DNA of 64,000 nucleotides, taken from assembly GCA_020350725.1 (NCBI GenBank), contig CP070719.1, positions 308,999-372,998 on the forward strand, written 5' to 3'. The position numbers and the translations under genes are program-made. Below, in pieces: positions 6,024 through 22,392 of this stretch. Position 1 is the first letter of the stretch, and each line of letters starts with the position of its first letter. Origin of the DNA: a bacterium. Its GTDB lineage: Bacteria > BMS3Abin14. The notes below the pieces were generated by a model that saw only the letters and a program-made list of their open reading frames with translations, was not told the DNA's origin and did no database searches.

Positions 6024-6118
6024 AATTGAGTCTTTGCCCGGGCACTAACATTCGGTGATTCGCATGCGTCGTGCGGGCTATAAAAATTCGATTCGGAAGC
6101 CGGCAAGGAGGAAGCCCT

Positions 6119-6757
6119 TTGACCAGAGATGAGAGCACCGGAATATCGATGAACACGGCGGGGGAGAAAAGGCGCAAGGCCATCCTCGACGCGGCGTGGT
6201 CCCTTTTCCTCGAGAAGGGGTACGCCGCGGTCAGCGTGGATGAGATCATCCGCGCCTCAGGCGGGTCAAAGTCCTCTCTGTATAAATACTTCGGAAGCAA
6301 GGAGGGTATTCTCAAGGAACTCATAGAATCGTTTGCCGAAGACATGCTGACGGAAGTAAAGCTCCCGTTTCCGCTGGACAAAACCCCCGAGGCCACGCTC
6401 AAAAGAATTGGTCTTCGCATCGGTGGCATGGCTCTGTCCCCGTTCGCGATCAATCAATACAGACTTGCCGTATCCAACGCCAATCCTTTCCCGGAAATTG
6501 CCAGAATGTGGTATGAATTCGGCCCCAAAAAGACCTTTGACGGCCTTGCGGAGTATATGGAGAAGGTAGCTGAAGCAGGAAAGCTGACGATTAAAAACCC
6601 GGAAAGGGCTGCCCTGTTTTTCTTCGGGATGATCATATTCAAGGACAACATGGCCATGTCCATCGGAGCTCCACCTCCAACGGAAGCGGAACTGGAGGAG
6701 ATCGTGGATGAGGCAGTGAGGGTTTTTCTCGCCGCCTACGGGAGGGAGGAAGTCTAA
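6119..6757 (+). CDS. TetR/AcrR-family transcriptional regulator
   Basis: N-terminal HTH KRRKAILDAAWSLFLEKGYAAVSVDEIIRASGGSKSSLYKYF. A TTG at 6119 with an AAGGAGGA RBS 6 nt upstream is the likely start; the track GTG at 6071 has no RBS. Confidence 0.8.
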   Translation: MTRDESTGISMNTAGEKRRKAILDAAWSLFLEKGYAAVSVDEIIRASGGSKSSLYKYFGSKEGILKELIESFAEDMLTEVKLPFPLDKTPEATLKRIGLRIGGMALSPFAINQYRLAVSNANPFPEIARMWYEFGPKKTFDGLAEYMEKVAEAGKLTIKNPERAALFFFGMIIFKDNMAMSIGAPPPTEAELEEIVDEAVRVFLAAYGREEV

Positions 6758-6972: not shown

Positions 6973-7112
6973 TTTAGCGATATGCGCCGGCAAATGCATT
7001 TGAACTGAGGAGGTGACGCTGAAAGCAGATAGATAAAAAGAGGATTCAGTCCCATTGAGGAAGCAGAAGGAAACGGATCAATGAACATGACGACTTGACT
7101 TGAGAGGTACAG

Positions 7113-7970
7113 ATGATGCGCACTTTAACCCTAGTAGTAATTGGAATACTGCTTACTGTTACACCGGCCTTGAACGGCACCGCAGCTCAGATCCAGCGAG
7201 TCCCGGATCAACAGGCCGCGACCGCCCTGCCCGCCTCCCTCGACTCGTTCTACCCGCCCAGCACCGACCGGCCGGTATATCTGATGGACATGCTGAAACT
7301 CGACACCCTCTTCTCGGGCATCGCGGCCGACGTTATGGAGGGGGACCACCAGGGTGCGAAGAGCACGTTCCGGCAGTTCAGATCCCAATATGTGGACGTC
7401 GGGAAAATGGTCCCGGAATGGAGAGAATACTACCCGATGGAACCGGTGGAAAAACTCGGAGCCGAGGTGTCCAGCGGAGAACCGGGAAGGATCATGGCCG
7501 CCATCAGTGAGGTGGGCAGGCTCTGTCACGAATGCCACTTCGTTTCAATGGTCCCCGTTCAGCAGAAGTACCACTGGGGGACTTTCACCGAGGTGAGAGT
7601 CGACGACCCGCTGAGCCGGGAGGAGGTGGACTTCTCACTGTTCAAGAAGTACCTTTCCACTAACCTGGCGGGAATCAGCATTAACCTTCGACAGGGTCAG
7701 ACGGAAAATGCCCGTCGGCAGTTTGCGGGATTCGAGGCGAGATTCCAGGCACTGAAAGGGTCCTGCCTGAATTGCCATGATCAGGAAAACAGGTACTTCG
7801 TCGATGGTGTGGTGGAGGACCTTTTGGGCAGGCTGGGCAGTGCCCTGGGGGACCAGAAGGTCAACACTGAAGCGGTGGAATCCCTGATCCAGGGTATCGG
7901 AAGGGAGAGCTGTTCCAAATGCCACCTCGTCCACGTGCCCGCTGCCTTAGCCGGAGTCAAGTATCAATGA
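7113..7970 (+). CDS. secreted triheme c-type cytochrome
   Basis: Signal peptide MMRTLTLVVIGILLTVTPALNGTAAQ. Three CXXCH motifs: CHECH, CLNCH, CSKCH. Confidence 0.7.
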   Translation: MMRTLTLVVIGILLTVTPALNGTAAQIQRVPDQQAATALPASLDSFYPPSTDRPVYLMDMLKLDTLFSGIAADVMEGDHQGAKSTFRQFRSQYVDVGKMVPEWREYYPMEPVEKLGAEVSSGEPGRIMAAISEVGRLCHECHFVSMVPVQQKYHWGTFTEVRVDDPLSREEVDFSLFKKYLSTNLAGISINLRQGQTENARRQFAGFEARFQALKGSCLNCHDQENRYFVDGVVEDLLGRLGSALGDQKVNTEAVESLIQGIGRESCSKCHLVHVPAALAGVKYQ

Positions 7971-9201: not shown

Positions 9202-9780
9202 ATGCGGAGCTTTGAGGAGATCTACGAGGGTTTCGGACCCCAGATAATCAGGTATCTGGCACGGCTGGTGAGCGAGAGCGAAGCCGAGGATCTGGCTCAG
9301 GAGACCTTCCTGAGAGTCCACAGGGGGCTGGAAGAGTTCCGGGGGGATTCCCGGATATCCACGTGGATCTACAGGATCGCCACGAATGTAGCGAGGGACA
9401 GGCTGAGGAAAGCCTCCTCGATGAGCGGAGGGGCGGTCACCAGCCTGGAAGAGGGGATGGACGTCGAGGACGGCAACGTGTGGACCGACGAGAAAGCCAG
9501 GAACACAGAGGGGATGACCATCAGAAAGGAGATGAACGACTGTATCCGCCGGTTCATCGACGACCTGCCGGAGGATTATCGGACCGTCCTGATCCTTCAG
9601 GATCTCGAGGGGTTCAAGAACCAGGAGATCGCGGACATCCTCGGGATAAGCCTGGACAATGTGAAAATCCGCCTCCACCGTGCCCGCACCCGGCTGCGAG
9701 AGGAGCTTCAGACCGGCTGCAGTTTTCACCGGGACGAGGAGGACGAACTGGGCTGCGATCTCAAGCAGCCGCAGGACTGA
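9202..9780 (+). CDS. ECF (sigma-70 family, RpoE-like) RNA polymerase sigma factor
   Basis: Region 2 (DLAQETFLRVHRGLEEFRG...STWIYRIATNVARDRLRK) and region 4 (YRTVLILQDLEGFKNQEIADILGISLDNVKIRLHRARTRLREEL). C-terminal extension with two Cys. Confidence 0.85.
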   Translation: MRSFEEIYEGFGPQIIRYLARLVSESEAEDLAQETFLRVHRGLEEFRGDSRISTWIYRIATNVARDRLRKASSMSGGAVTSLEEGMDVEDGNVWTDEKARNTEGMTIRKEMNDCIRRFIDDLPEDYRTVLILQDLEGFKNQEIADILGISLDNVKIRLHRARTRLREELQTGCSFHRDEEDELGCDLKQPQD

Positions 9781-9837
9781 TCTCTGACAGCAACCCGGCC
9801 TGCGGCCTGAGCGGCCGTCACTCCGGTTTCCGGTTTC

Positions 9838-9880
9838 TGCTCTGACCCCTTTTCTCTGCTCTGACCCCTTTTCTCTTTTT
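9838..9880. repeat. tandem CTGCTCTGACCCCTTTTCTC x2
   Basis: Direct tandem duplication; a variant of the dispersed GTGCTCTGACCCC motif. Confidence 0.55.
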
Positions 9881-9896
9881 TCTTTTCCGAGATCAT

Positions 9897-9935
9897 CGTT
9901 CCAGGGTCCAGGTTCCATGTTCCAGGTTTCCCCGT
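9897..9935. repeat. heptamer tandem array (CGTTCCA GGGTCCA GGTTCCA TGTTCCA GGTTTCC)
   Basis: Period-7 degenerate repeats, same family as 4577 and 8284. Confidence 0.55.
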
Positions 9936-10114
9936 CCGGAGGACCGCGGTGGCGCGATAGGGATGGTGCTCAGGGATGGTGCTCTGACCCCGTTGTCCGT
10001 TGTCAGGCTCCGGGCCATTCCAACTCAAACTGCCGTTGCCTCCTGGCATCGGCAGCCTGGAAGAGGGTGGATGGCGAAGGTGGATGTTCTCTGTGGCAAA
10101 TCTCATTGCCCGCA

Positions 10115-11219
10115 TCAGGCCAGCAATGCGGCGGAGGTAGAAGCCGCCGTTTTTATGTCAATCCCCTGGCTGCACTCGACCGTACACCCCTCGCATTCTG
10201 CACACACCTTTAGCCCGGAAGCGAAGACCGCCCTCTCCGACGCCAAGCGGAGGTCCTTGTAGCCGTCAAGATACATGGCGATGCGGACCGCATCCAGACC
10301 TCCCACGCCGTAACGGCATTGGTCGATGCACCCTGAGCAGAAGGCACAAGCCTTTCCCATGAGGTCCGCCCGGAAGGCGTCCAGGAGAAAGAGATCGGAA
10401 AGCCCTCCCTTCCTCAGGACGGCAGCGAGGTTCTCGTCCACCATCCTCCGGCTGAGCATGCCGGGAACGGCCGTGTGAATACCGGGCCTTTCCAAAACGA
10501 AGCGGAGGGCCGACTGATGTGAATTCAGCTCAGGGTAGGTTCCACTGGGGAAGCCCCCGCTCTGGGTCTTCATGGCGATGATGCCGACTCCCCCGCGGGC
10601 TGTTTTCTCGATAATCTCGAAAAGAGCCGGGGGAGAGCGGAAGTTTACAGCCACCAGGACCGTGTCGTAGAAGCCGTCCGCCATGACGGCCTCGAGCACT
10701 TCCCGCTGGTTGGAGTGGGTGGTCACCCCGGCGAATCGGATCTTCCCCTCGGCCTTCATCGCCTCCAGGATCCTCTGGACGCCCTTGTCCTCAATCTGGC
10801 GTCGCGATGACATTCCGTGGAGCTGCATCAGGTCCACCGAGGTGACCCCCAGAGAGGACAGGCTCCTGTCCACCGATGACCTCATCCTGGCTTCGCTGCC
10901 CATGTGGACCTTGGTGGCGATGAACACCCTGTCCCTTATACCGGCGACCGCGCGCCCCACGATCTTCTCGTTCCTTCCCCCCATGTAGCAATCCGCCGTA
11001 TCGATGTAGGTGATCCCCTGGTCCAAACCATGTCGGATAGTTGACGGGTCGCTGCACTGCATGGCGCCGTAGCCGAGCACGGAAACCCGGACTCCGGTAC
11101 GTCCGAGGATCCTGGCGGGCATACTGTTGTCTGCAGCGGCGAGGGCCTGGCCGGGGAACACCAGGGTTCCCACCAAGCCGGCCGTTTTTTTCAGGAATTC
11201 TCGCCGCCCGATACTCATC
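10115..11219 (-). CDS. TAT-exported aldo/keto reductase-family oxidoreductase with C-terminal Fe-S (ferredoxin-like) Cys-rich domain
   Basis: ATG at 11219 (MSIGRREFLKKTAGLVGTL, twin-arginine motif). AKR core (GYGAMQ, ITYIDTADCYMGG). C-terminal CAFCSGCIDQC...CAECEGCTVEC. Confidence 0.7.
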
Positions 11220-13907: not shown

Positions 13908-15197
13908 CTATTGAGCCGGTAGTTGGATGAATGCGGCCGACGGCTTGATGAACTGCTGACGAAGGCTCAGGGTGTAGGCGCCCTGTCCGGGCAGCAGGAG
14001 GACGTCTCCCGGCTCGATGCCGTCACCGAAATAGGACCATCCCCAGACGTCGTGTGGGGTGCACAGGGAGCCGGCGATCAGGCATGGGTGCTCGTCGAGG
14101 GAGGGCCGGCTGAGGTTGATCACCGGCACGTAATCTGTCTCGTATCGTTCCCACCCCACGATATTGGTTCCAGCGTCGGTGACGACGAGGTCGTCGGCCT
14201 TCCTGTCGGCCACCCGGATCATGATGTGCATGGCGTCGTTGACGATCCAACGCCCTGGCTCGGCGTAGACTGCCGGCGATGAGAAGGGAAAGATCCGGTC
14301 GTGGAGGGTTCGGGAGATCTCACGGGCGAAGTCCTCGATGGACGCCGCCTCAAGACATCGGCTCCCCCTTACGCCTGAGCCGCCTCCCGGCGATCGGATC
14401 TCCTCGGTCAGGAGCCACTCGCCGTCCCGGGGCCAGTAGCCGCCACCGATGTCAAGAAATTCAAGGCGGTTGCCATGCACCGGATCCAGGTCCCTCCAGA
14501 CATCCCCCAGCCGGCGGATGAAGCCGGTCTGGGCTTCAGGGGTGAGGTTCCAGCTCGTGTGGAACTGAAGGCCCCTGAGAAGGACGCCGGGACAGCCTGC
14601 CGCCCGGTCAAGGAAGGTCTCGAGATCGGAGAGGGGGATGCCGAATTTGCGCCACAGGCCCTCCTCCTGGGTGGTGAGGCGGACGCCGGAGGTGATCTCG
14701 ACGGCGGCGCGTTGCGCCGCATTCGTGAGACGGTCCAGCTCCCCGAAACTGTCCATGAGAACCGTCACTCGCTCATGGTGGGCAGCGGCCAGATCCAGTT
14801 CCTCCTCTGTCTTACCGGGACCGGAGAAGAGGATCCGACGGCACCCTGTCTCCAGGGCCAGCTTGAGCTCCAGACCGCTTGAGACATCGAGGCCGAGGCC
14901 GGAACGAACCGCTTCGGCCGCCACCTGAGGGTGGTTGTTGCACTTGACGGCGAAGAACGCTTCGAAAGCCGGCAGACGCTGTCTGAAGGCGTCGAGGAAG
15001 GACCGTGCCCTGTCCCTCAGAACAGCAGGCTCGAAGAGGTAGAGGGGTACCGATTCCTGCCGGGCAATCCCCTCGAGTTCAGCCGCCCGGTCAAGGAATT
15101 TCCTTACCAGATCCCTTGCCTTCTTCCGGCAGTCCGCGTCCTCCCGCATGAGACGGGAAAGGTCTGCCGATTGACGCCTGTCGGGAGCGCCGGTCAC
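13908..15197 (-). CDS. fold-III PLP-dependent decarboxylase (ornithine/diaminopimelate/carboxynorspermidine decarboxylase family)
   Basis: FAVKCNNHP lysine motif, GLGLDVSS, EPGRW and CTPHD motifs. GTG start overlaps the upstream stop (GTGA). Confidence 0.75.
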   Translation of the reverse strand: MTGAPDRRQSADLSRLMREDADCRKKARDLVRKFLDRAAELEGIARQESVPLYLFEPAVLRDRARSFLDAFRQRLPAFEAFFAVKCNNHPQVAAEAVRSGLGLDVSSGLELKLALETGCRRILFSGPGKTEEELDLAAAHHERVTVLMDSFGELDRLTNAAQRAAVEITSGVRLTTQEEGLWRKFGIPLSDLETFLDRAAGCPGVLLRGLQFHTSWNLTPEAQTGFIRRLGDVWRDLDPVHGNRLEFLDIGGGYWPRDGEWLLTEEIRSPGGGSGVRGSRCLEAASIEDFAREISRTLHDRIFPFSSPAVYAEPGRWIVNDAMHIMIRVADRKADDLVVTDAGTNIVGWERYETDYVPVINLSRPSLDEHPCLIAGSLCTPHDVWGWSYFGDGIEPGDVLLLPGQGAYTLSLRQQFIKPSAAFIQLPAQ

Positions 15198-16477
15198 GAG
15201 GCGATCTCCACCTCGGCAAGCTCCTCGAGGCAGGCGCCCTCTTCAGACAGCCGGCTTCGGTCTCCCGGCCGGAAGACAACGTGACCCAGAACGCGCGAGA
15301 AATAATCGTCGGGCGGCAGGGCCACCCGGTGCCCGGGTTTTCTGTAAAAAACCACCTCGAGGACCTTCGGGTCCGTCTGGAGCCGGCCGTTGGCGAGATT
15401 CTGGAGGAGACCCTCCCGGCGGGCGAACATGCGGAACGCCGCGAGGAATTCATGGGATTCCAGTTTCGGCAGGAAGATCGTCCGACCCTCGGCCACGTCC
15501 AAAGCCAGGCCCAGAGTGTCGATGCCGCTGCTGGCCTTCACCAGCCAGGGAAGACAATCCCCCGCAGGCCGCGCCGAGACCTCCAGGAAATAGGGGCGTC
15601 CCCGGTGGACGATGAAATCGGCCATGAATATCCCCTGTTCGAATCCCATGGAGCTGGCCGAATTTCGCAGCTGGGCCTCGAGATCTCTCTGGCTGATACC
15701 CGTCTCCTCCATGTCGGCGACGTAATAGAGAAGAGCTGTTCCCGTGCCGATCTCAGGTGCCAGGATCTTGCCGGAAAGACGCACGAGCTGCGCCCGATGG
15801 CCGGAGAGGACAAAGTCGCAGCTGAACTCGGGACCTGTGAAGCCCTCCTCAAGGACGACGTCCTGCCTTGGATCCAGACCCCGGCCCGGGGGGGAAAAGC
15901 TCCGGTACATCCGGTCGTCGGTATGGTTGGCCAGCCTCCTGGTGATGATCCGGAACGCCTTTCTGGCGTCTTCCCGCTTACGGCACCAGAAGACCAGTTC
16001 GCTTCCCGATCCGGTAAGAGGTTTGAGGACCAGGGGGAATCCCAGCTTGTCCATGACCGTCTCGAGGTCATCCCTGTCACGGGCGGTCAGGGATCTCGGG
16101 CAGCACACACCCGAGCGAAGCCATGCCCTCTTGGAGTGGAATTTGCTGCGGCTTGTCCGCACAGCCTCCAGTGAATGAAAGGGGAGCTTCCAACGATCGG
16201 CAAGATCGGAGGCGAGGATCAGGGATTCGTCGTCGTAGCAGGTAAGGCCGCTGAGTTCGATGTCGTAACGGACAAGATGGCCGGAAAGCGCCTCCGCCGA
16301 CCCCCGGGCATCCCGAAGGTCGAAGGTGACCTCCTCTTCAGGACCCGGCGTTTCCTCCGACGCCTCAAGACGCATCCTCTCATCGGTGAGAAAGAGGGCT
16401 CGTCCCGGGTATCTCCGCCGTATGATGTCGACGTAATCGGGAGTCGTGCCGACTACGAGGACCCGTCTTGAGCTCAT
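15194..16477 (-). CDS. ATP-grasp domain ligase
   Basis: FPLVLKPLTGSGSELVF..., EEGFTGPEFSCDF..., FLEVSARPAG: ATP-grasp fold signature order. Confidence 0.6.
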   Translation of the reverse strand: MSSRRVLVVGTTPDYVDIIRRRYPGRALFLTDERMRLEASEETPGPEEEVTFDLRDARGSAEALSGHLVRYDIELSGLTCYDDESLILASDLADRWKLPFHSLEAVRTSRSKFHSKRAWLRSGVCCPRSLTARDRDDLETVMDKLGFPLVLKPLTGSGSELVFWCRKREDARKAFRIITRRLANHTDDRMYRSFSPPGRGLDPRQDVVLEEGFTGPEFSCDFVLSGHRAQLVRLSGKILAPEIGTGTALLYYVADMEETGISQRDLEAQLRNSASSMGFEQGIFMADFIVHRGRPYFLEVSARPAGDCLPWLVKASSGIDTLGLALDVAEGRTIFLPKLESHEFLAAFRMFARREGLLQNLANGRLQTDPKVLEVVFYRKPGHRVALPPDDYFSRVLGHVVFRPGDRSRLSEEGACLEELAEVEIAS

Positions 16478-16489
16478 GGGATTTCCTTT

Positions 16490-17404
16490 TCAGGCTGCCC
16501 GAACACCGGCTTCGGCCAGCAGGTAGAGGGGGCGCTCCTGGAGGTGAAACATCTTCTTCCAGTTGAAGTCGCCGCAGAGGAAATCCACCTCGAGCATCCG
16601 CTCCTCGCAGGCCCGCCTCATGTGATGCAGATTGATGAGCTTGGCGATGCCGGGATAGAAGGCGCTGGTGCCCCCCGCCATGAGCGTGTACACGCCGTTG
16701 TAAAGCACCCCGATGTCAACCGCGGCGGTCTCGCCTGCGATGAGGACCGTCGTCACCCGGAGCCAGCCTTGCTGGTCAAAGAAGCTGACCATGTCCCGGA
16801 ATCCCCTCCTGAAGCGGGGATCGCTGAAATAGGAGTCATGGCCGAACCGGGAGACGTTCATGGTCACCATGGAATCGAAATCCTCGATCCGGTTTTGACG
16901 CCAGGAGATCCCCATGGCTTCGATGGCCTCGATCTCACGGCCGATCCTCTTGATCGATTTGCTCGAGAACTGGCCCATAAACCGATCGAATTCGAATCCG
17001 AAATGGGGGGGGCGGAAGAGATAGCCGATTTCGTCCACCGTCCTGTTGGCGGGAAGAGCCGCAGACCTGTTCGACAGGTACCTGATGTGAAAGGGGCCGG
17101 GGACAGCGGCCAGCAGACGCTCGGGGTCCCTGGCAGTCAGGATGTTCTGCTCCAGCCAGGTCCTGCCCTTCCACGTTTCACCGGGGAAAAAGGCGTAGCA
17201 GCCCTGTTCCTCCACCCAGGACAGGGGAAGGAGGCCTGAGAGACGGCCGCCGGTTTCCTCTACCAGAAAGTGGATAGGTCTGGAGAAATGGCGGTGAAAG
17301 GAGGAGCGCACCTCCCAGAGATCGGTGATCATCTCCCGGGGCATGATGGCCTCCCAGAGGCTCCTGGCCTCCTCCAGGTCCCGGACCACCCTGAGGCCGT
17401 CCAT
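16490..17404 (-). CDS. FemAB-like GNAT (Acetyltransf_6 / BioF2-like) family protein
   Basis: About 300 aa with the two-subdomain GNAT pattern typical of FemX/CelD-like proteins. Family assignment is by recollection. Confidence 0.5.
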   Translation of the reverse strand: MDGLRVVRDLEEARSLWEAIMPREMITDLWEVRSSFHRHFSRPIHFLVEETGGRLSGLLPLSWVEEQGCYAFFPGETWKGRTWLEQNILTARDPERLLAAVPGPFHIRYLSNRSAALPANRTVDEIGYLFRPPHFGFEFDRFMGQFSSKSIKRIGREIEAIEAMGISWRQNRIEDFDSMVTMNVSRFGHDSYFSDPRFRRGFRDMVSFFDQQGWLRVTTVLIAGETAAVDIGVLYNGVYTLMAGGTSAFYPGIAKLINLHHMRRACEERMLEVDFLCGDFNWKKMFHLQERPLYLLAEAGVRAA

Positions 17405-17406
17405 CC

Positions 17407-17811
17407 CTACCTCCGGAAGGTGATGCTGGTTTCCACCCTCGACCCGCCGAAGTAACGGCGCGCGAATTCGGCCACGATCTCCGGGTCGTAAGGCTTACAG
17501 CTGAACACGTCCAGGTAGGTCGTGTTGGTGAGGTTGGCGAAGTGAGCCGAGATGAGGGAGGTTTCGATGAGCTGGACCATGGAGAAGCCGGCTACCCTCT
17601 CGTCCTCCCCGAAGTGGATCACCTGCGTCTCGCCGAACCGTTTCATCTCGATGAGGTCGCACAGTTGAACAACGAACCGGCGGATGGCGTCCGCGTCCCG
17701 AATGGTATCCGGGCAGCAGTCGTAGATGTCGATGGCCGTGGCAATGCCCCAAACGTTCTCAGCGGCGGCGCGCTCCGGCACGCTCATGGGTACGGGCTGA
17801 ATTCCCATCAT
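17407..17811 (-). CDS. S-adenosylmethionine decarboxylase-like pyruvoyl proenzyme (SpeD/SpeH family)
   Basis: 134 aa alignable to the Bacillus SpeH core (DIYDC...; IETSLISAHF vs ISESHLTIHSFPE; YLDVFSC). AAGGAGG RBS. Confidence 0.6.
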   Translation of the reverse strand: MMGIQPVPMSVPERAAAENVWGIATAIDIYDCCPDTIRDADAIRRFVVQLCDLIEMKRFGETQVIHFGEDERVAGFSMVQLIETSLISAHFANLTNTTYLDVFSCKPYDPEIVAEFARRYFGGSRVETSITFRR

Positions 17812-17885
17812 CTTATTTTTCCTCCTTTCTTGCCTTTAGGTGGCCTGTGGCCTTGCCGCTGAGATGGCGTTGGGGCTGGTCACCG

Positions 17886-18542
17886 CTAGGTTTCCTCCTG
17901 ACGGAGGGCTCCGTTGATGAACCGCGCCATGCTGCTCACCAGGACCCCCCTCAGGGACTGCAGATTAGCGTCCACGTCATCGTCCTCCGAGGCGATGACG
18001 GCGAACGAGTAGTAGCCGGAAAGAAAACCCGCCACCGCGCAGCCCATGCGGCGCAGAAGGGGTTTGTCGAGACGCTGTTTGACCACTGCGTCCACCAGTG
18101 CCTCGATGGACTCCAGGTATTCGATGAAGGGCAGCTCCAGGCCGGAATAGCCCTCCTTGAGCTTCAGGTCCGCACGGCCCTGATAGTAGAGGACAAACTC
18201 CTCCCATCGTGTGCTGAAGAAATCGATGTGAACCTGGATGATGGATTCCAGCAGGGACGTCAGGTCGTCAGCCCCGGTGCATCGCTTCTCCATGAGCGAG
18301 GTCAGCTCTTCAAGGACCTGCCGGATCAGGTCGGCGATGATCTCGTTCTTGTCGGAAAAGTGGTAGTAGAAGGTTCCCTTCCCCACGTCCGCCCGCTGGG
18401 TGATCTCGTCGATCGTGGTCAGATCGATCCCCTTCTCGGCGAACAGCTCCCTCGCCGCAATGAGGAGCCGGCGGCGGGTGGCACGGACCCTTCTGGTCTG
18501 GCGGGTGGCCTGTTCCCTGCGGACATTATCCACACCGGTCAT
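17886..18542 (-). CDS. TetR/AcrR-family transcriptional regulator
   Basis: HTH RRRLLIAARELFAEKGIDLTTIDEITQRADVGKGTFYYHF. GGGAGG RBS. Confidence 0.85.
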   Translation of the reverse strand: MTGVDNVRREQATRQTRRVRATRRRLLIAARELFAEKGIDLTTIDEITQRADVGKGTFYYHFSDKNEIIADLIRQVLEELTSLMEKRCTGADDLTSLLESIIQVHIDFFSTRWEEFVLYYQGRADLKLKEGYSGLELPFIEYLESIEALVDAVVKQRLDKPLLRRMGCAVAGFLSGYYSFAVIASEDDDVDANLQSLRGVLVSSMARFINGALRQEET

Positions 18543-18565
18543 GATGATTTTTTCCTCCCATTTTT

Positions 18566-18600
18566 TCGACTAGATAGTCAATTTTGACCATTTAGTCAAC
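18566..18600. promoter_or_regulatory. cluster of overlapping inverted repeats (GACTA-N2-TAGTC, GTCAA-N2-TTGAC, TTGAC-N6-GTCAA): TetR operator candidate
   Basis: cGACTAGATAGTCAATTTTGACCATTTAGTCAAc lies directly upstream of the tetR start at 18542. Confidence 0.55.
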
Positions 18601-18903: not shown

Positions 18904-20928
18904 CTATCCCCCGTCCTCCTCCAGCACGAACAGCAGCTGGTTCTCGATCACCGGTTCGTTCAGGCCGATGCAGATCTCGGCTATCCGACCGTTGATAGGG
19001 GCGGCGATGACGTTTTCCATCTTCATCGCCTCGATGTTGGCGATCTCCTCCCCTTCGTGGACGATGTCTCCCACGGCGATATCACCGCGCTTGGGATTGC
19101 CCATCCGCCACACGGAGCCGGTGATGGGTGAGCCGACCTCGTTGGTGGCCTTGGCCATGCGGATCTCGGCCTTGACCACCCGGGGCGTCTCCACCGTAAA
19201 CACCTTGGCCTGGTTGTTGATCCTCAGGACCACCGGGACGTAGCCGTCGTACTCGTCGCCCACCGAGACCATCTCGACGGTATGGGGCTTGTCTCTCATC
19301 TGAAAGTCCACCTTGTCGCCGGGGCGGGGGAGCCCGGAGTGCCACACGTTGGTGGGCAGGACGATGGAGGATTCCCCGTACTCCTCCCGAAACTCGATCA
19401 TCTCCACCGTGTCCTTGGGGTGCATGAGAAAGAGGATGAACTCCTCCTCGGAGGGATGCCAGCCCAGCTTCGCGGCAAGATCCTCCCTCAGGCCGTCAAG
19501 ATCCTCATCCTCCAGGGCGTCGAGGGGAGAGTCCCCGATCCTCCTGGCCAGATTCTCCTGCCATTGATCTCCGAACGCGCTCTGGTAGACCCAGTCGGCC
19601 GGCCATCCGGCAGGAAGCCTGCCGTACCCTCCCAGGATAAGGTTCTTGAAATCCCCCGGCGCGGTGACGAAGAACTCCATGAGCTCCTCCCTCTCCTCGG
19701 GGGCCAGCCTGTCCAGGTCCTGGTCGACTTCCTCGGTGAACTTCTTCAGGAGGGCGATGAGGCGGTTGACGCCTGTTAAACCGAACTCTTTGGCGTAGCG
19801 GTTCACGGTGCCGCTGCAGGTGACCCAGGTCATCTGGCTGCCGGGGGTGACGTCAAAGTAGTGGACGATTCGGTTGTACAGGGACATCACCTGCAGGATC
19901 TGGGGCATAAGGTGGAGAAAACCGCCCCTCTCGGCCTGCTCGAAGGAACTGGGAAAGGCCCCTCCGGGCATCCTGTGCTGGACGACGTTATGATCGAAGC
20001 CCTTGAAAGGCGACTCGGCCCAGCCGTATTGGCGCACCCAGTCCCGGGCCTTCTGGACGGCGGCCTCCGCCTCAGGGCGGTTCAGGAGCACCGGGATCCC
20101 GGCCTCCTCGAGATAGGCGTGGAGAGAGAGTATAGGAGCCTGACCGTAGAATCGGGTTAAAGAGTCCTCCTGGGCGTCCAGGAGTTTGGCGCCGGCCTGG
20201 GCGGCAGCCAGCAGGGCGGGAAGGGCCAGCCCGTCCGTCGAGTGGCGGTGGTACTGAACCACTGCCTCCGGGTACTTCTGCAGGATGGCGTCAACCAGCT
20301 CCCGGATCCTCTCCGGACTCCCCACTCCCGCCATGTCCTTGATGCAGAGGACGACCTCCTCCACGCCGCCGCACAGGTCAACCATGTCGTCGACGACTCC
20401 GAGGTAATAGTCGTTGGTCGCCCAGTCCGCCTGGGTAAAGGAAACAGCCGGTTCGAACAGGAGGCCTCTTTCCATGACCACCTCGCAGATGGTACGCATA
20501 TTGCGGACGTCGTTGAGAAAGGAGAAGCACCTCCAGACATCGATGTCCACCTTGGACACCACATATTCGATGACGTTCCGGGGGTAGGGCCGGTACCCCC
20601 ACAGGCTGGTCTCGCGGATCAGGGTCTGAAGGAGAACGCTGGGCATTCTCTCACGAAGGATAGCCGTCTCCTCAAAGGGACTCTCCCGGCGGTTGAGGAT
20701 CCCCACGTGCCAGCGTGCCCCTCCGTGGACCTCTGCGGAAAAAAGGTTCATCCGGTCGTAGTGGGGAGCCAGGGTGGCCTGGTCGTGGATCCGGAGCCGG
20801 TTCTTGAAGTCCGACTGGCCGGCGTCCCTCATTCCCGTGGAGGTGATGGCTACCCCCGGCAGGGCTCTTACCTTCCTGATGATCTCCGCAGGGGTCATGC
20901 CTGGTCTGAAAACTGTCCGATCACTCAT
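18904..20928 (-). CDS. pycB: pyruvate carboxylase subunit B (carboxyltransferase + biotinyl carrier domain)
   Basis: TxxRDAGQS N-terminus, HxH metal site region. C-terminal biotinyl domain EAMKMEN. Confidence 0.85.
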   Translation of the reverse strand: MSDRTVFRPGMTPAEIIRKVRALPGVAITSTGMRDAGQSDFKNRLRIHDQATLAPHYDRMNLFSAEVHGGARWHVGILNRRESPFEETAILRERMPSVLLQTLIRETSLWGYRPYPRNVIEYVVSKVDIDVWRCFSFLNDVRNMRTICEVVMERGLLFEPAVSFTQADWATNDYYLGVVDDMVDLCGGVEEVVLCIKDMAGVGSPERIRELVDAILQKYPEAVVQYHRHSTDGLALPALLAAAQAGAKLLDAQEDSLTRFYGQAPILSLHAYLEEAGIPVLLNRPEAEAAVQKARDWVRQYGWAESPFKGFDHNVVQHRMPGGAFPSSFEQAERGGFLHLMPQILQVMSLYNRIVHYFDVTPGSQMTWVTCSGTVNRYAKEFGLTGVNRLIALLKKFTEEVDQDLDRLAPEEREELMEFFVTAPGDFKNLILGGYGRLPAGWPADWVYQSAFGDQWQENLARRIGDSPLDALEDEDLDGLREDLAAKLGWHPSEEEFILFLMHPKDTVEMIEFREEYGESSIVLPTNVWHSGLPRPGDKVDFQMRDKPHTVEMVSVGDEYDGYVPVVLRINNQAKVFTVETPRVVKAEIRMAKATNEVGSPITGSVWRMGNPKRGDIAVGDIVHEGEEIANIEAMKMENVIAAPINGRIAEICIGLNEPVIENQLLFVLEEDGG

Positions 20929-20937
20929 GATATGTCC

Positions 20938-22392
20938 TTATATCCAGGACCGCGGTCCCAGGGCTGAAACCTCCGCCAGGTATTTGGCGATCTTGAGCAG
21001 CTCGTCCTCAGTGCTTGGTTCCCGGAAGGCCTTGACCAGGTCCTGGAGGTTGTCGTCGATGAACCGGGTGGAAAAATCCCCGGCCCGGAAGGCCGGGTGG
21101 CGGATGATGCTCATGAGAAGGGGTTTGAGAGTCTTGACCCCTTCCACCCTCAGGCTGCGTCCCAAAGCCCGGTCCATGACGTTGAGGGCATCCTCGCGGT
21201 TATGGCCGGCGCTCATGATGAGCATGAGCAGGGAGTCGTAATAGGGCGGGACCGAGGCACCGTGGTATACGCCGGTGGCGATCCTCAGGTTGGGCCCGTC
21301 GGGTGTCCGCAGGCGGGTGATCGTGCCGAAGGAGGGTCCGAAGGTCTCCGGATCCTCGGCATTGAGCCTGACCTCCATGGCCCACCGGTTGGGTTTGACG
21401 TCGTCCTGTGAAAACCCCAGGGGTTTGCCCTCGGCCACGTCCAGCATGAGGCCCACCAGATCGTATCCGGTGGTCAGTTCCGTGAGGCCGTGCTCCACCT
21501 GCAGCCTGGTGTTGACCTCAAGGAAATAGTAACTGCCCGCACTCTGGTCGAAGATGAACTCCACAGTCCCCGCGGACTGGTAGTCGATCTCCCTCATCAG
21601 GGCAACCGCCTTGCCGCAGATCTCCTGCCGGAGGTCCTCGCTCAGGGACGGAGAGGGCGATTCCTCGATGACCTTCTGGTTGCGCCTCTGAATGCTGCAT
21701 TCCCTCTCGTAGAGGTGAACGACGTTCCCATGCTGGTCGCCCAGGATCTGGACCTCAATGTGGCGGGCATTCTGGATGAACTTCTCCAGGATGAGCGTGC
21801 CGCTCCCGAAGGCCTTTTCGGCCTCTGAGCTTGCCTGGGACAGAGCCTGTTCGAGATCCTTCGCCCGGTCCACCCGGACGAGGCCCCGCCCCCCTCCACC
21901 CGAGGCGGCCTTGATCATAATGGGGTATTCGATGCCGGCTTTTCTGATCCAGTCCAGGGCTTCTTCTGAGGTGGTGACATTCTCCCTCCCGGGGATAGTG
22001 GGTACGCCTGCTCTCTGGGCCATCTGCCTGGCATGGGCCTTGTCACCCATACTGCGGATCACACCGGGAGGTGGACCCACCCAGATGAGGCCTTCGTCCT
22101 GGACCATCTGGGCGAAATCACCGTTCTCGGCCAGAAATCCCCAGCCGGGATGAATGGCATCGGACCCCGTCTCGAAGGCTGCCCGCAGGACGTTCTCCAT
22201 GTTCAGGTAGGACTCGGCGGGAGGTGCTTCACCGATGTGCACCGCCCTGTCTGCCATGACCACGTGGTGTCCCAGGCGGTCCGGCGTGCTGTAGACAGCG
22301 GTGGTTGGGATCTTCCTGTCGCGGCAGGTATGCATGACCCTGACCGCCGAAACTCCCCGGTTGGCCACTAGAAGCCGTTCGATTTTCTTCAC
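20938..22392 (-). CDS. pycA: pyruvate carboxylase subunit A (biotin carboxylase)
   Basis: ATP-grasp biotin carboxylase motifs (GGGGRG, EVNTRLQVEH). Directly upstream of pycB. Confidence 0.85.
   Translation of the reverse strand: MKKIERLLVANRGVSAVRVMHTCRDRKIPTTAVYSTPDRLGHHVVMADRAVHIGEAPPAESYLNMENVLRAAFETGSDAIHPGWGFLAENGDFAQMVQDEGLIWVGPPPGVIRSMGDKAHARQMAQRAGVPTIPGRENVTTSEEALDWIRKAGIEYPIMIKAASGGGGRGLVRVDRAKDLEQALSQASSEAEKAFGSGTLILEKFIQNARHIEVQILGDQHGNVVHLYERECSIQRRNQKVIEESPSPSLSEDLRQEICGKAVALMREIDYQSAGTVEFIFDQSAGSYYFLEVNTRLQVEHGLTELTTGYDLVGLMLDVAEGKPLGFSQDDVKPNRWAMEVRLNAEDPETFGPSFGTITRLRTPDGPNLRIATGVYHGASVPPYYDSLLMLIMSAGHNREDALNVMDRALGRSLRVEGVKTLKPLLMSIIRHPAFRAGDFSTRFIDDNLQDLVKAFREPSTEDELLKIAKYLAEVSALGPRSWI

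Follow-up and report, generated by a model that had tools for sequence, protein, structure and literature searches.

Layout of the operon

Within the window, that is, the whole 64-kb stretch of DNA analysed, the five minus-strand open reading frames of the original prediction are present at the coordinates it gave, and a Pfam profile search bore out all four enzyme families that it had foreseen. The first gene of the transcription unit, tetR (17886-18542), encodes a TetR-family repressor of 218 aa with a TetR_N helix-turn-helix (PF00440, 5e-16). It is followed, after a gap of 74 nt, by the gene for a SpeDC-type pyruvoyl-dependent decarboxylase proenzyme of 134 aa (17407-17811; assigned from Pfam and diagnostic residues), and then by those for a tandem-GNAT transferase of the Fem/Sbb17 structural class (304 aa, 16490-17404; Pfam and modelled fold), an ATP-grasp ligase of the L-amino-acid-ligase type (427 aa, 15194-16477; Pfam and fold) and a fold-type III PLP-dependent decarboxylase (429 aa, 13908-15197; Pfam and motifs).

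Two stop/start overlaps had been described. The one between the ATP-grasp and PLP decarboxylase genes is a GTGA at 15197-15194, but that at 17407/17404 is not an overlap: the SpeDC stop codon TAG (17409-17407) is followed by 'gg' and the GNAT start codon ATG at 17404. The two genes are tightly coupled despite this 2-nt spacer. The reported 13-nt gap at 16490/16477 is essentially correct, with a spacer of 12 nt (16489-16478) from the GNAT stop to the ATP-grasp start. On the 5′ side the operon is bounded by a strong intrinsic terminator on the minus strand (18807-18781; a 12-bp stem with 7 GC pairs, then a T-run), which sets it apart from the upstream pyruvate carboxylase genes.

The region upstream of tetR had been said to carry three overlapping inverted repeats at 18566-18600. 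The repeats are real and beyond chance, but there are two palindromes, the third being merely their junction. These tandem 16-bp candidate operators, on the minus strand, are TTGACTAAATGGTCAA at 18599-18584 and, 18 bp from it, TTGACTATCTAGTCGA at 18581-18566; the pattern TTGAC-N6-GTCRA has no other occurrence in the 64-kb window, where 0.26 would be expected by chance. They overlap a promoter-like TTGACT (18599-18594) separated by a 17-nt spacer from TATCTA (18576-18571), hexamers that were read by eye and that a promoter consensus scan did not call. We read the unit as a putative TetR-autoregulated operon, with the palindromes as likely operators at the repressor's own promoter. An orthologous TetR (49-89% identity) is found at the corresponding place in 16 of the 80 related loci, as well as in L001 and L002, and the TetR-linked loci examined have two or three such palindromes upstream of tetR, mostly at the exact 18-bp spacing. 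About 45 loci have a divergent sigma-54 activator, and 19 of the 62 non-TetR loci show sigma-54 promoter elements upstream of SpeDC, compared with 0.011 expected per locus.

The pyruvoyl enzyme

The SpeD-like protein matches PF02675 at 1.3e-22 and contains, at residues 82-91, the motif IETSLISAHF that had been noted earlier. Its Thr-Ser was then taken for an oddity of an AdoMetDC proenzyme, a view that does not hold. According to Li, Liang, Phillips and Michael (J Biol Chem 2023, PMC10407285), who studied SpeDC pyruvoyl L-ornithine decarboxylases and their polyamine gene clusters, four diagnostic residues, Gln, Thr, Phe and Tyr, define this enzyme group, and Thr at position -1 is one of them. 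The window protein has all four (Q80, T84, F91 and Y99 in vQLIETSLISAHFANLTNTTYLDVFSC), the positions being matched through the same pattern in the domains validated there (Fig. S5). It is also close to two validated ODC domains, the SpeD2 of Ca. Omnitrophica OLB16 (51% over 126 aa, E 3e-47) and that of D. phosphitoxidans (61% over 95 aa), both reference sequences coming from the OCR text of Fig. S5, which has some errors. Ser85, His90 (Ser+5) and Cys105 (His+15) are spaced as are S63/H68/C83 of the T. maritima enzyme, and this Ser/His/Cys motif is invariant in 27 orthologues.

Judged by its sequence, the 'AdoMetDC-like' protein is thus a member of the SpeDC group, with predicted self-cleavage between Thr84 and Ser85 and His90 and Cys105 as predicted catalytic residues. 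The reaction is probably the conversion of L-ornithine to putrescine. Because the protein belongs to the SpeDC pyruvoyl L-ornithine decarboxylases, the starting amine is most likely putrescine, so the earlier option of an 'aminopropylated' amine loses its basis and is unlikely. Ornithine is not certain, because the cassette-linked proteins form a subclade with a signature of its own, SCKPYDP, share only 51-61% identity with the assayed enzymes, and belong to a clade with one member known as an arginine decarboxylase (PMC10407285).

A bona fide AdoMetDC/SpeD (class 1b) was considered and rejected, the protein scoring 28 bits against TIGR03330, below that model's cut-off of 75.65. Bona fide AdoMetDC has an H-T-W-P-E segment after the catalytic His. 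Here the segment reads H-F-A-N-L, without the Pro and without the Glu, a Pro being described as fully invariant among bona fide enzymes (PMC10407285). Public annotation calls the cassette genes 'S-adenosylmethionine decarboxylase', 'GNAT family N-acetyltransferase' and 'hypothetical protein', the first of which is probably wrong for the cassette SpeDC.

The amide-forming enzymes and the PLP decarboxylase

The prediction of a Fem-type GNAT is supported both by Pfam (PF13480, Acetyltransf_6, 1.3e-21) and by the fold. The protein models as a tandem GNAT whose nearest solved folds, Sbb17/Sba18, FemX and MprF, are all aminoacyl-tRNA-dependent transferases. PF13480 is its sole Pfam match, with none to the FemAB sequence family PF02388; no NCBIfam model matched, nor did any PDB sequence, even with a 40-sequence profile. 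Residues 251-255 form an invariant P-G-x-A-K loop at the place where CoA-dependent GNATs bind pyrophosphate. The modelled fold suggests that the enzyme probably N-acylates a small amine using aminoacyl-tRNA, an acyl-CoA donor being less likely.

The ligase matches ATP-grasp_4 (PF13535) at 3.6e-6, has the C-terminal domain specific to L-amino acid ligases (LAL) and finds its closest structures among these ligases. It is of this type and not a housekeeping RimK or PurK, for it stays below the cut-offs of the curated families (rimK_fam 41.9 against 143.4, purT 16.2 against 502, Ddl 19.4 against 243), and its RimK Pfam match is confined to the ATP-binding N-terminal part. The dapdiamide ligase model DdaF matches at 4.9e-9, far below its cut-off. 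The enzyme is predicted to make an amide bond with ATP via an acyl phosphate.

For the last gene, too, the assignment to fold III stands: the protein matches PF02784 at 2e-28 and PF00278 at 1e-4, with BtrK (6e-19), DAPDC (4e-17) and FslC (2e-16) as best PDB matches. The catalytic motifs FAVKCN, QFHTSW, GGGYW, EPGR, SLCTPHD and GAYT are all present and are conserved in 58 orthologues, as is the segment GWERYETDY. In LysA the corresponding R-P-x-x-Y segment binds the distal carboxylate. DAP decarboxylase was rejected, since GWERYETDY replaces R-P-x-x-Y and the protein reaches 127 bits with TIGR01048, whose cut-off is 297.9. Among the NCBIfam models, none named carboxy(nor)spermidine decarboxylase matched, and no CASDH or other dehydrogenase gene is conserved with the cassette in related loci, so that the locus is not syntenic with the carboxyspermidine pathway. 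The enzyme is a separate lineage beside DAP decarboxylase, BtrK and FslC, and its substrate is probably an amino acid unit attached by its side chain.

Distribution of the cassette

The gene order SpeDC, GNAT, ATP-grasp ligase, PLP decarboxylase is kept in 72 of 80 species-level genomes, which span at least 11 phyla; at four more of the 80 loci contig ends interrupt the cassette, which is consistent as far as it reaches. A scan with the SpeDC signature gave at least 596 matching places in the species-level genome collection. The GNAT and ATP-grasp families comprise 887 and 996 clusters respectively, a similarity in size that fits co-distribution, and SpeDC identity across cassettes is unusually high (67-91%). 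Apart from a regulator, no further partner gene is conserved in the 80 loci, and no transporter, exporter, self-resistance or tailoring gene is conserved with the cassette. The cross-phylum synteny strongly favours a single pathway, in support of the original prediction of one repressor-headed unit with two decarboxylases and two amide-forming enzymes. Our literature search found no paper describing the four-gene cassette.

Carriers include Desulfobacterota, Planctomycetota, Omnitrophota, Zixibacteria, Krumholzibacteriota, Deferribacterota and others. These lineages are anaerobic bacteria, environmentally abundant and mostly uncultured, although cultured carriers exist, such as Desulfoluna butyratoxydans and Desulfobacter latus. 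Two genomes have a second, partly decayed copy of the cassette, and in about 14-22 of the 80 loci a small, highly charged ORF lies just upstream of SpeDC.

Proposed pathway and alternatives

Starting from the gene order, families, folds, catalytic motifs, synteny and operators demonstrated above, we propose with moderate confidence that the cassette is a self-contained, regulated biosynthetic unit that turns ornithine, together with one or two common amino acids, into a putrescine conjugate with amide linkages, a 'pseudo-polyamine'. All substrates, the order of the last three steps and the product are what we infer. SpeDC would self-cleave between Thr84 and Ser85 to form its pyruvoyl cofactor and convert L-ornithine to putrescine. 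The Fem/Sbb17-like GNAT would then place an aminoacyl group, most likely from aminoacyl-tRNA, on a primary amine, either putrescine's own or that of a later intermediate, and the ATP-grasp ligase would activate an amino-acid carboxylate as the acyl phosphate and couple it to an amine. Finally, the PLP decarboxylase could remove the α-carboxylate from a side-chain-attached amino-acid unit with a free α-amino acid end, leaving a new terminal amine, a type of reaction for which BtrK, FslC, carboxyspermidine decarboxylase and MccE are precedents. In this genome TetR would repress the unit by binding the two palindromic operators over the promoter, with release presumably by a pathway-related ligand. 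Our best guess for the product is an aminoacylated or decarboxylated putrescine amide. An 'undescribed modified polyamine or pseudo-peptide', as originally suggested, is plausible, though the aminopropylation part of that suggestion is unlikely.

The chemistry does not close uniquely. ATP-grasp ligases and Fem-type enzymes normally activate α-carboxylates, which would leave no free α-amino acid for the PLP enzyme, with two exceptions: the nucleophile is a side-chain amine, as for PylC, or the donor is diaminopimelate.

The same cassette could instead cap or protect one amine with a GNAT that uses acetyl-CoA or another acyl-CoA, in the manner of MshD in mycothiol synthesis, yielding an N-acylated putrescine conjugate. 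The invariant P-G-x-A-K loop leaves room for such a donor; we regard this reading as unlikely. It is quite improbable that putrescine or a short amino-acid bridge is attached to a macromolecule, such as a peptidoglycan precursor, a lipid or a protein. FemX and MprF, the structural neighbours of the GNAT, do act on peptidoglycan precursors and lipids, Ddl, RimK and LysX are ATP-grasp ligases, and the charged small ORF upstream of SpeDC in some relatives could be a scaffold peptide. However, that ORF is limited to the fraction of loci given above and the 74-nt tetR-SpeDC gap of the window leaves no room for it. Among the genes conserved with the cassette there is none for a Mur ligase, a membrane protein or a carrier protein; the structure of Sbb17, the best match of the GNAT, contains a small molecule; and the ATP-grasp enzyme lies nearest to ligases that act on free amino acids.

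The locus could also be a secondary-metabolite cluster that makes a bioactive antimetabolite resembling a dipeptide, along the lines of tabtoxin, dapdiamide or bacilysin, whose pathways likewise pair L-amino acid ligases with LysA-like or GNAT enzymes. The ATP-grasp protein folds like BacD and RizA and matches the DdaF model, if far below cut-off, TetR control is common in such clusters, and a second, partly decayed copy in two genomes would fit. We nevertheless hold this very unlikely: the composition and order of the four genes are fixed in at least 11 phyla, exporter, self-resistance and tailoring genes are missing, and the unusual conservation of SpeDC fits conserved physiology better than strain-specific chemistry. 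Least credible, and in our judgement highly improbable, is a new route from putrescine to spermidine or homospermidine that replaces SpeD/SpeE, CASDH/CASDC or HSS. All SpeDC clusters reported earlier carry a triamine-forming module (PMC10407285), and the PLP enzyme is in the superfamily of carboxyspermidine decarboxylase, but the cassette lacks a reductase or dehydrogenase, its amide bonds could not become secondary amines, and both CASDH and a carboxy(nor)spermidine decarboxylase match are absent.

Returning to the pseudo-polyamine, a wider version of that proposal, which we put forward only tentatively and consider rather unlikely, is that the cassette is a widespread, unrecognised polyamine branch in anaerobes. 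Putrescine from SpeDC would be aminoacylated with aminoacyl-tRNA as donor, extended by the ATP-grasp ligase and decarboxylated, to give an amide-linked oligo-amine that would do the cellular work of spermidine or homospermidine in lineages where their pathways are missing; this would be the first tRNA-dependent polyamine aminoacylation in core metabolism. SpeDC enzymes were recognised only in 2023 and have until now been linked only to classical triamine pathways; here a distinct, unusually conserved SpeDC subgroup is locked to three amide-chemistry enzymes. If the product is indeed a new polyamine-like compound, it would represent a new class of cellular polycations and a further use of aminoacyl-tRNA outside translation, and metabolic reconstructions of the carrier phyla would need correction. 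With four genes, cultured carriers and a defined putative TetR operator, the system is tractable.

Comparison with known systems

The exosortase A (PEP-CTERM) system reportedly includes a trio of a FemAB-related protein, the PLP decarboxylase TIGR03099 and an acyl-CoA ligase. Both systems combine a Fem-like protein of the PF13480 type with a DAPDC-like decarboxylase and a ligase that activates carboxylates, and TIGR03099 is the second-best NCBIfam match of the window decarboxylase (77 bits against a cut-off of 478). However, the ligase types differ, no ACP or exosortase genes lie near the cassette, and the exosortase system is not known to include a SpeDC. Among solved folds, the GNAT comes nearest to Sbb17/Sba18 (PDB 9wqw-9wqy), described as aminoacyl-tRNA-dependent peptide synthases and solved with the small amine streptothrisamine, and to Weissella viridescens FemX, at identities of only 11-17%, the Sbb17 type having 286 aa and the window protein 304 aa. 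The L-amino acid ligases BL00235, BacD/YwfE and RizA share 14-18% identity with the window ATP-grasp protein, whose nucleophile may, unlike theirs, be a diamine or side-chain amine and not an α-amino acid.

In Francisella rhizoferrin synthesis, FslC, a DAPDC-like PLP enzyme (N-citrylornithine decarboxylase), decarboxylates ornithine only after acylation of the side-chain amine, giving an N-acyl-putrescine. It ranks among the best PDB matches of the window decarboxylase, for which the NCBIfam FslC model gives 52 bits (cut-off 500), and the rhizoferrin ligase is a citrate-using NIS synthetase, unlike the window ATP-grasp. In the butirosin side-chain pathway an ATP-grasp ligase, BtrJ, stands beside a fold-III decarboxylase, BtrK, the BtrK substrate being the tethered γ-glutamyl-ACP. 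A CTP(E/H)D motif follows the active-site Cys in both BtrK and the window enzyme, and BtrK is the best PDB sequence match, although the similarity is no greater than to DAP decarboxylases. Genes for an acyl carrier protein, a monooxygenase and equivalents of BtrH/BtrG are absent here, BtrH being papain-like and not a GNAT (PMC2922099).

The published SpeDC enzymes share with the window protein the four diagnostic residues, the Ser/His/Cys motif and, for the assayed ODC domains, 51-61% identity, and in both settings SpeDC heads a group of amine-metabolising genes. The published clusters contain speD/speE, casdh/casdc or hss, whereas the partners in the window are a Fem-like GNAT, an ATP-grasp ligase and a DAPDC-like PLP decarboxylase, a set that PMC10407285 does not mention. 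Compared with the published enzymes, the proteins linked to the cassette are a subgroup of their own, highly conserved and marked by SCKPYDP.

Organization of the operon

The cassette is real and widespread, and its first step is here corrected to SpeDC. All five minus-strand open reading frames of the original prediction are present in the window at the coordinates it assigned, and Pfam HMM searches confirmed the family predicted for each enzyme and for the regulator: TetR at 17886-18542 (TetR_N), the SpeD-like protein at 17407-17811 (AdoMet_dc, PF02675, at 1.3e-22), the GNAT at 16490-17404 (Acetyltransf_6, PF13480, at 1.3e-21), the ATP-grasp protein at 15194-16477 (PF13535) and the fold-III PLP decarboxylase at 13908-15197 (PF02784 at 2e-28, with a weak match to the C-terminal domain PF00278). 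At the junctions, the GTGA overlap between the ATP-grasp and decarboxylase genes holds and the spacer between the GNAT and ATP-grasp genes is 12 nt, but the claimed overlap of the SpeD-like and GNAT genes is really a 2-nt gap.

A strong terminator with a 12-bp stem (18807-18781) closes the upstream genes of a two-subunit pyruvate carboxylase, so that a new transcription unit begins with the tetR gene; the 74 nt that separate tetR from SpeDC contain no terminator-like site. The pyruvate carboxylase genes, encoding the biotin carboxylase subunit (20938-22392, minus strand, directly upstream of the cassette region) and the carboxyltransferase plus biotin-carrier subunit (18904-20928, minus strand), seem to have no connection with the cassette, and relatives do not share this neighbourhood (18904-22392). 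No other polyamine genes were found in the surroundings of the cassette in the window (1.9-46 kb). At a distance of about 11 kb (6071-6757, plus strand) the window encodes a second, unrelated regulator of the TetR family, whose TetR_C_7 domain is AefR-like. Since none of the five proteins matched a PADLOC defence model, an anti-phage role is without support.

The first enzyme is SpeDC

SpeDC is a clade of AdoMetDC homologues that act as pyruvoyl-dependent L-ornithine decarboxylases, recognized by a diagnostic set of four residues flanking the processing serine, namely Gln, Thr, Phe and Tyr (Li et al. 2023, PMC10407285). In the window protein the relevant segment reads vQLIETSLISAHFANLTNTTYLDVFSC and contains all four: Gln80, Thr84 just ahead of Ser85, Phe91 next to the catalytic His90, and Tyr99. 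The catalytic cysteine is Cys105, and the Ser-His-Cys spacing equals that of T. maritima S63/H68/C83. From the catalytic histidine onward the segment reads HFANL, without the proline that is completely conserved in true AdoMetDCs (PMC10407285). Fig. S5 of the same paper gives the ODC domains that were assayed from two fusion proteins; although those sequences carry OCR errors, the window protein shows 61% identity to the domain from Desulfotignum phosphitoxidans and 51% to the one from Ca. Omnitrophica OLB16. Membership of the bona fide AdoMetDC family fails on the NCBIfam model, where the 28 bits of the protein fall short of the cut-off of 75.65; PDB sequence searches, profiles included, gave no match.

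The Thr-Ser site, originally taken as an oddity of an AdoMetDC proenzyme, is thus a hallmark of the SpeDC family, given the diagnostic residues and the 51-61% identity to assayed ODC domains. Judged by its sequence, the first cassette enzyme is SpeDC and not an aberrant AdoMetDC, and its product is likely to be putrescine rather than decarboxylated AdoMet.

Distribution and conservation of the cassette

A scan for SpeDC signature peptides in genomes reduced to a single representative of each species gave at least 596 matching places. Related loci are designated below by L numbers. Among the best 80 loci, 72 carry SpeDC, GNAT, ATP-grasp and PLP decarboxylase in this order on one strand; the remainder are four loci cut by contig ends, one truncated duplicate and three with a lone SpeDC. 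Clustering of all flanking ORFs revealed no further conserved partner except regulators. The carriers belong to Desulfobacterota, Planctomycetota, Omnitrophota, Zixibacteria, Krumholzibacteriota, Hydrogenedentota, Sumerlaeota, Lentisphaerota, Ignavibacteriales, Nitrospirota and Deferribacterota, and among them are two cultured organisms, Desulfoluna butyratoxydans and Desulfobacter latus, as well as MAGs attributed to Desulfosudis oleivorans and Desulfobacter postgatei.

Across these phyla SpeDC is 67-91% identical, whereas the partner proteins show only about 28-79% identity to those of the window. Recent transfer is thereby ruled out as an explanation of the conservation. An alignment of SpeDC orthologues contains an invariant 30-residue core, and SpeDC may be under constraint beyond catalysis, for example from oligomer or partner contacts.

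Two genomes hold two copies of the cassette, L001 and L007 in CP070682.1 and L013 and L009 in CP070689.1. The ATP-grasp ORF of L007 is broken and its TetR partial, while L009 has a truncated ATP-grasp gene and lacks the PLP decarboxylase; these apparently damaged copies may be decaying duplicates or reflect long-read frameshift errors. In L038, from a MAG attributed to Desulfosudis oleivorans, a gene for an IS200-like transposase (9673-10275) separates the ATP-grasp gene from the PLP-decarboxylase gene in a cassette that is otherwise intact. A few genomes have SpeDC of this same subgroup but lack the three partner genes (L022, 6968-7378; L079, ~7001-7357; L048, 7010-7399). In L022 it adjoins a glutamate dehydrogenase gene; the L048 contig is possibly chimeric or rearranged, since the ORF of its sigma-54 activator runs on into a dehydratase-like segment.

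Two modes of regulation

A co-directional TetR gene, as in the window, is found at 16 of the 80 loci, while roughly 45 have no TetR and instead a divergent NtrC-type sigma-54 activator (within L010-L084; e.g. L058, 5063-6520, and L072, 4990-6414). One gene set is thus wired to two quite different regulators. The TetR-linked loci examined have two to three 16-bp palindromes (nTGAC-N6-GTCrn) upstream of tetR, with an exact 18-bp spacing in most. In the window the putative operators, 16 bp each, lie at 18599-18584 and 18581-18566 and overlap a promoter-like TTGACT, 17-nt spacer and TATCTA; the motif has no further occurrence within the 64 kb. Arrays, mostly of 18-bp period, are kept even where TetR is just 49-88% identical to that of the window (L005-L081), which suggests that TetR binds as several cooperating dimers.

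Strict -24/-12 elements of the TGGCAC-N5-TTGCT type, 140-425 nt upstream of SpeDC, precede it at 19 of 62 non-TetR loci and at none of the TetR loci. An Rfam search of the long leaders of ten related loci found no riboswitch or other known RNA. Some sigma-54-type loci have a small ORF between promoter and SpeDC, encoding a very charged peptide of about 50-60 residues, for example MTREKFNRNKGKSPRFKESYDEDYDWEDQKEDQKRRKKMNKKPKRPTDTRDKW (L046, 2263-2502; L051, 6799-6960; L070, 6737-6934; L072, 6778-6939; L033, 1149-1310; L032, 6592-6774; also in L036, L039, L056, L034, L062 and L083). One subgroup conserves PKF(K/R), YDE..DW, RRK and a C-terminal (D/E/K)W; a second shares DEDED...KQKKSGKRFHRKK. 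The peptide might act as a leader that senses ornithine or polyamines, in the manner of E. coli SpeFL, or else as a scaffold. A LysW-like carrier or scaffold peptide as a core part was rejected, because only about 14-22 of the 80 loci have the ORF and the 74-nt tetR-SpeDC gap of the window leaves it no room; nor did any counterpart turn up when the small ORFs of the window were searched by HMM.

The partner enzymes and a proposed pathway

The GNAT matched neither NCBIfam models nor, even with profiles, PDB sequences. Its AlphaFold model is a confident tandem GNAT (pLDDT 87.3), for which Foldseek placed aminoacyl-tRNA-dependent transferases nearest, the first CoA-dependent enzyme appearing only at rank 19. 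A butirosin-like reading with a BtrH-type transferase was rejected, since BtrH, being papain-like, is no GNAT.

The PLP decarboxylase keeps the Schiff-base lysine, the histidine, the GGG loop, EPGR, the Cys-x-x-x-Asp segment and GAY, all conserved in 58 orthologues. It fails the test for DAP decarboxylase, its score with the NCBIfam LysA model being 127 bits where 298 are required, and also that for carboxyspermidine decarboxylase, the NCBIfam carboxy(nor)spermidine decarboxylase model giving no match. Its best solved relatives in the PDB, at similar E-values, are BtrK, DAP decarboxylases and FslC.

Enzyme families and precedents suggest a pathway in which ornithine would be decarboxylated to putrescine, the Fem/Sbb17-like enzyme and the ATP-grasp ligase would each make one of two amide bonds, and the PLP enzyme would decarboxylate an amino-acid unit tethered by its side chain. 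BtrK and FslC catalyze this last type of reaction, as do carboxyspermidine decarboxylase and MccE.

All of the cassette enzymes fall into known superfamilies, and pathways to amine conjugates have precedents. Searches on the gene combination, SpeDC and names of possible products turned up no account of the cassette in the searchable literature. We therefore consider the cassette novel as a combination, not in its enzyme types, given also the published gene contexts of SpeDC: the only partners listed there are speD/speE, casdh/casdc or hss (PMC10407285), whereas SpeDC of the window is joined by a GNAT, an ATP-grasp enzyme and a PLP decarboxylase.
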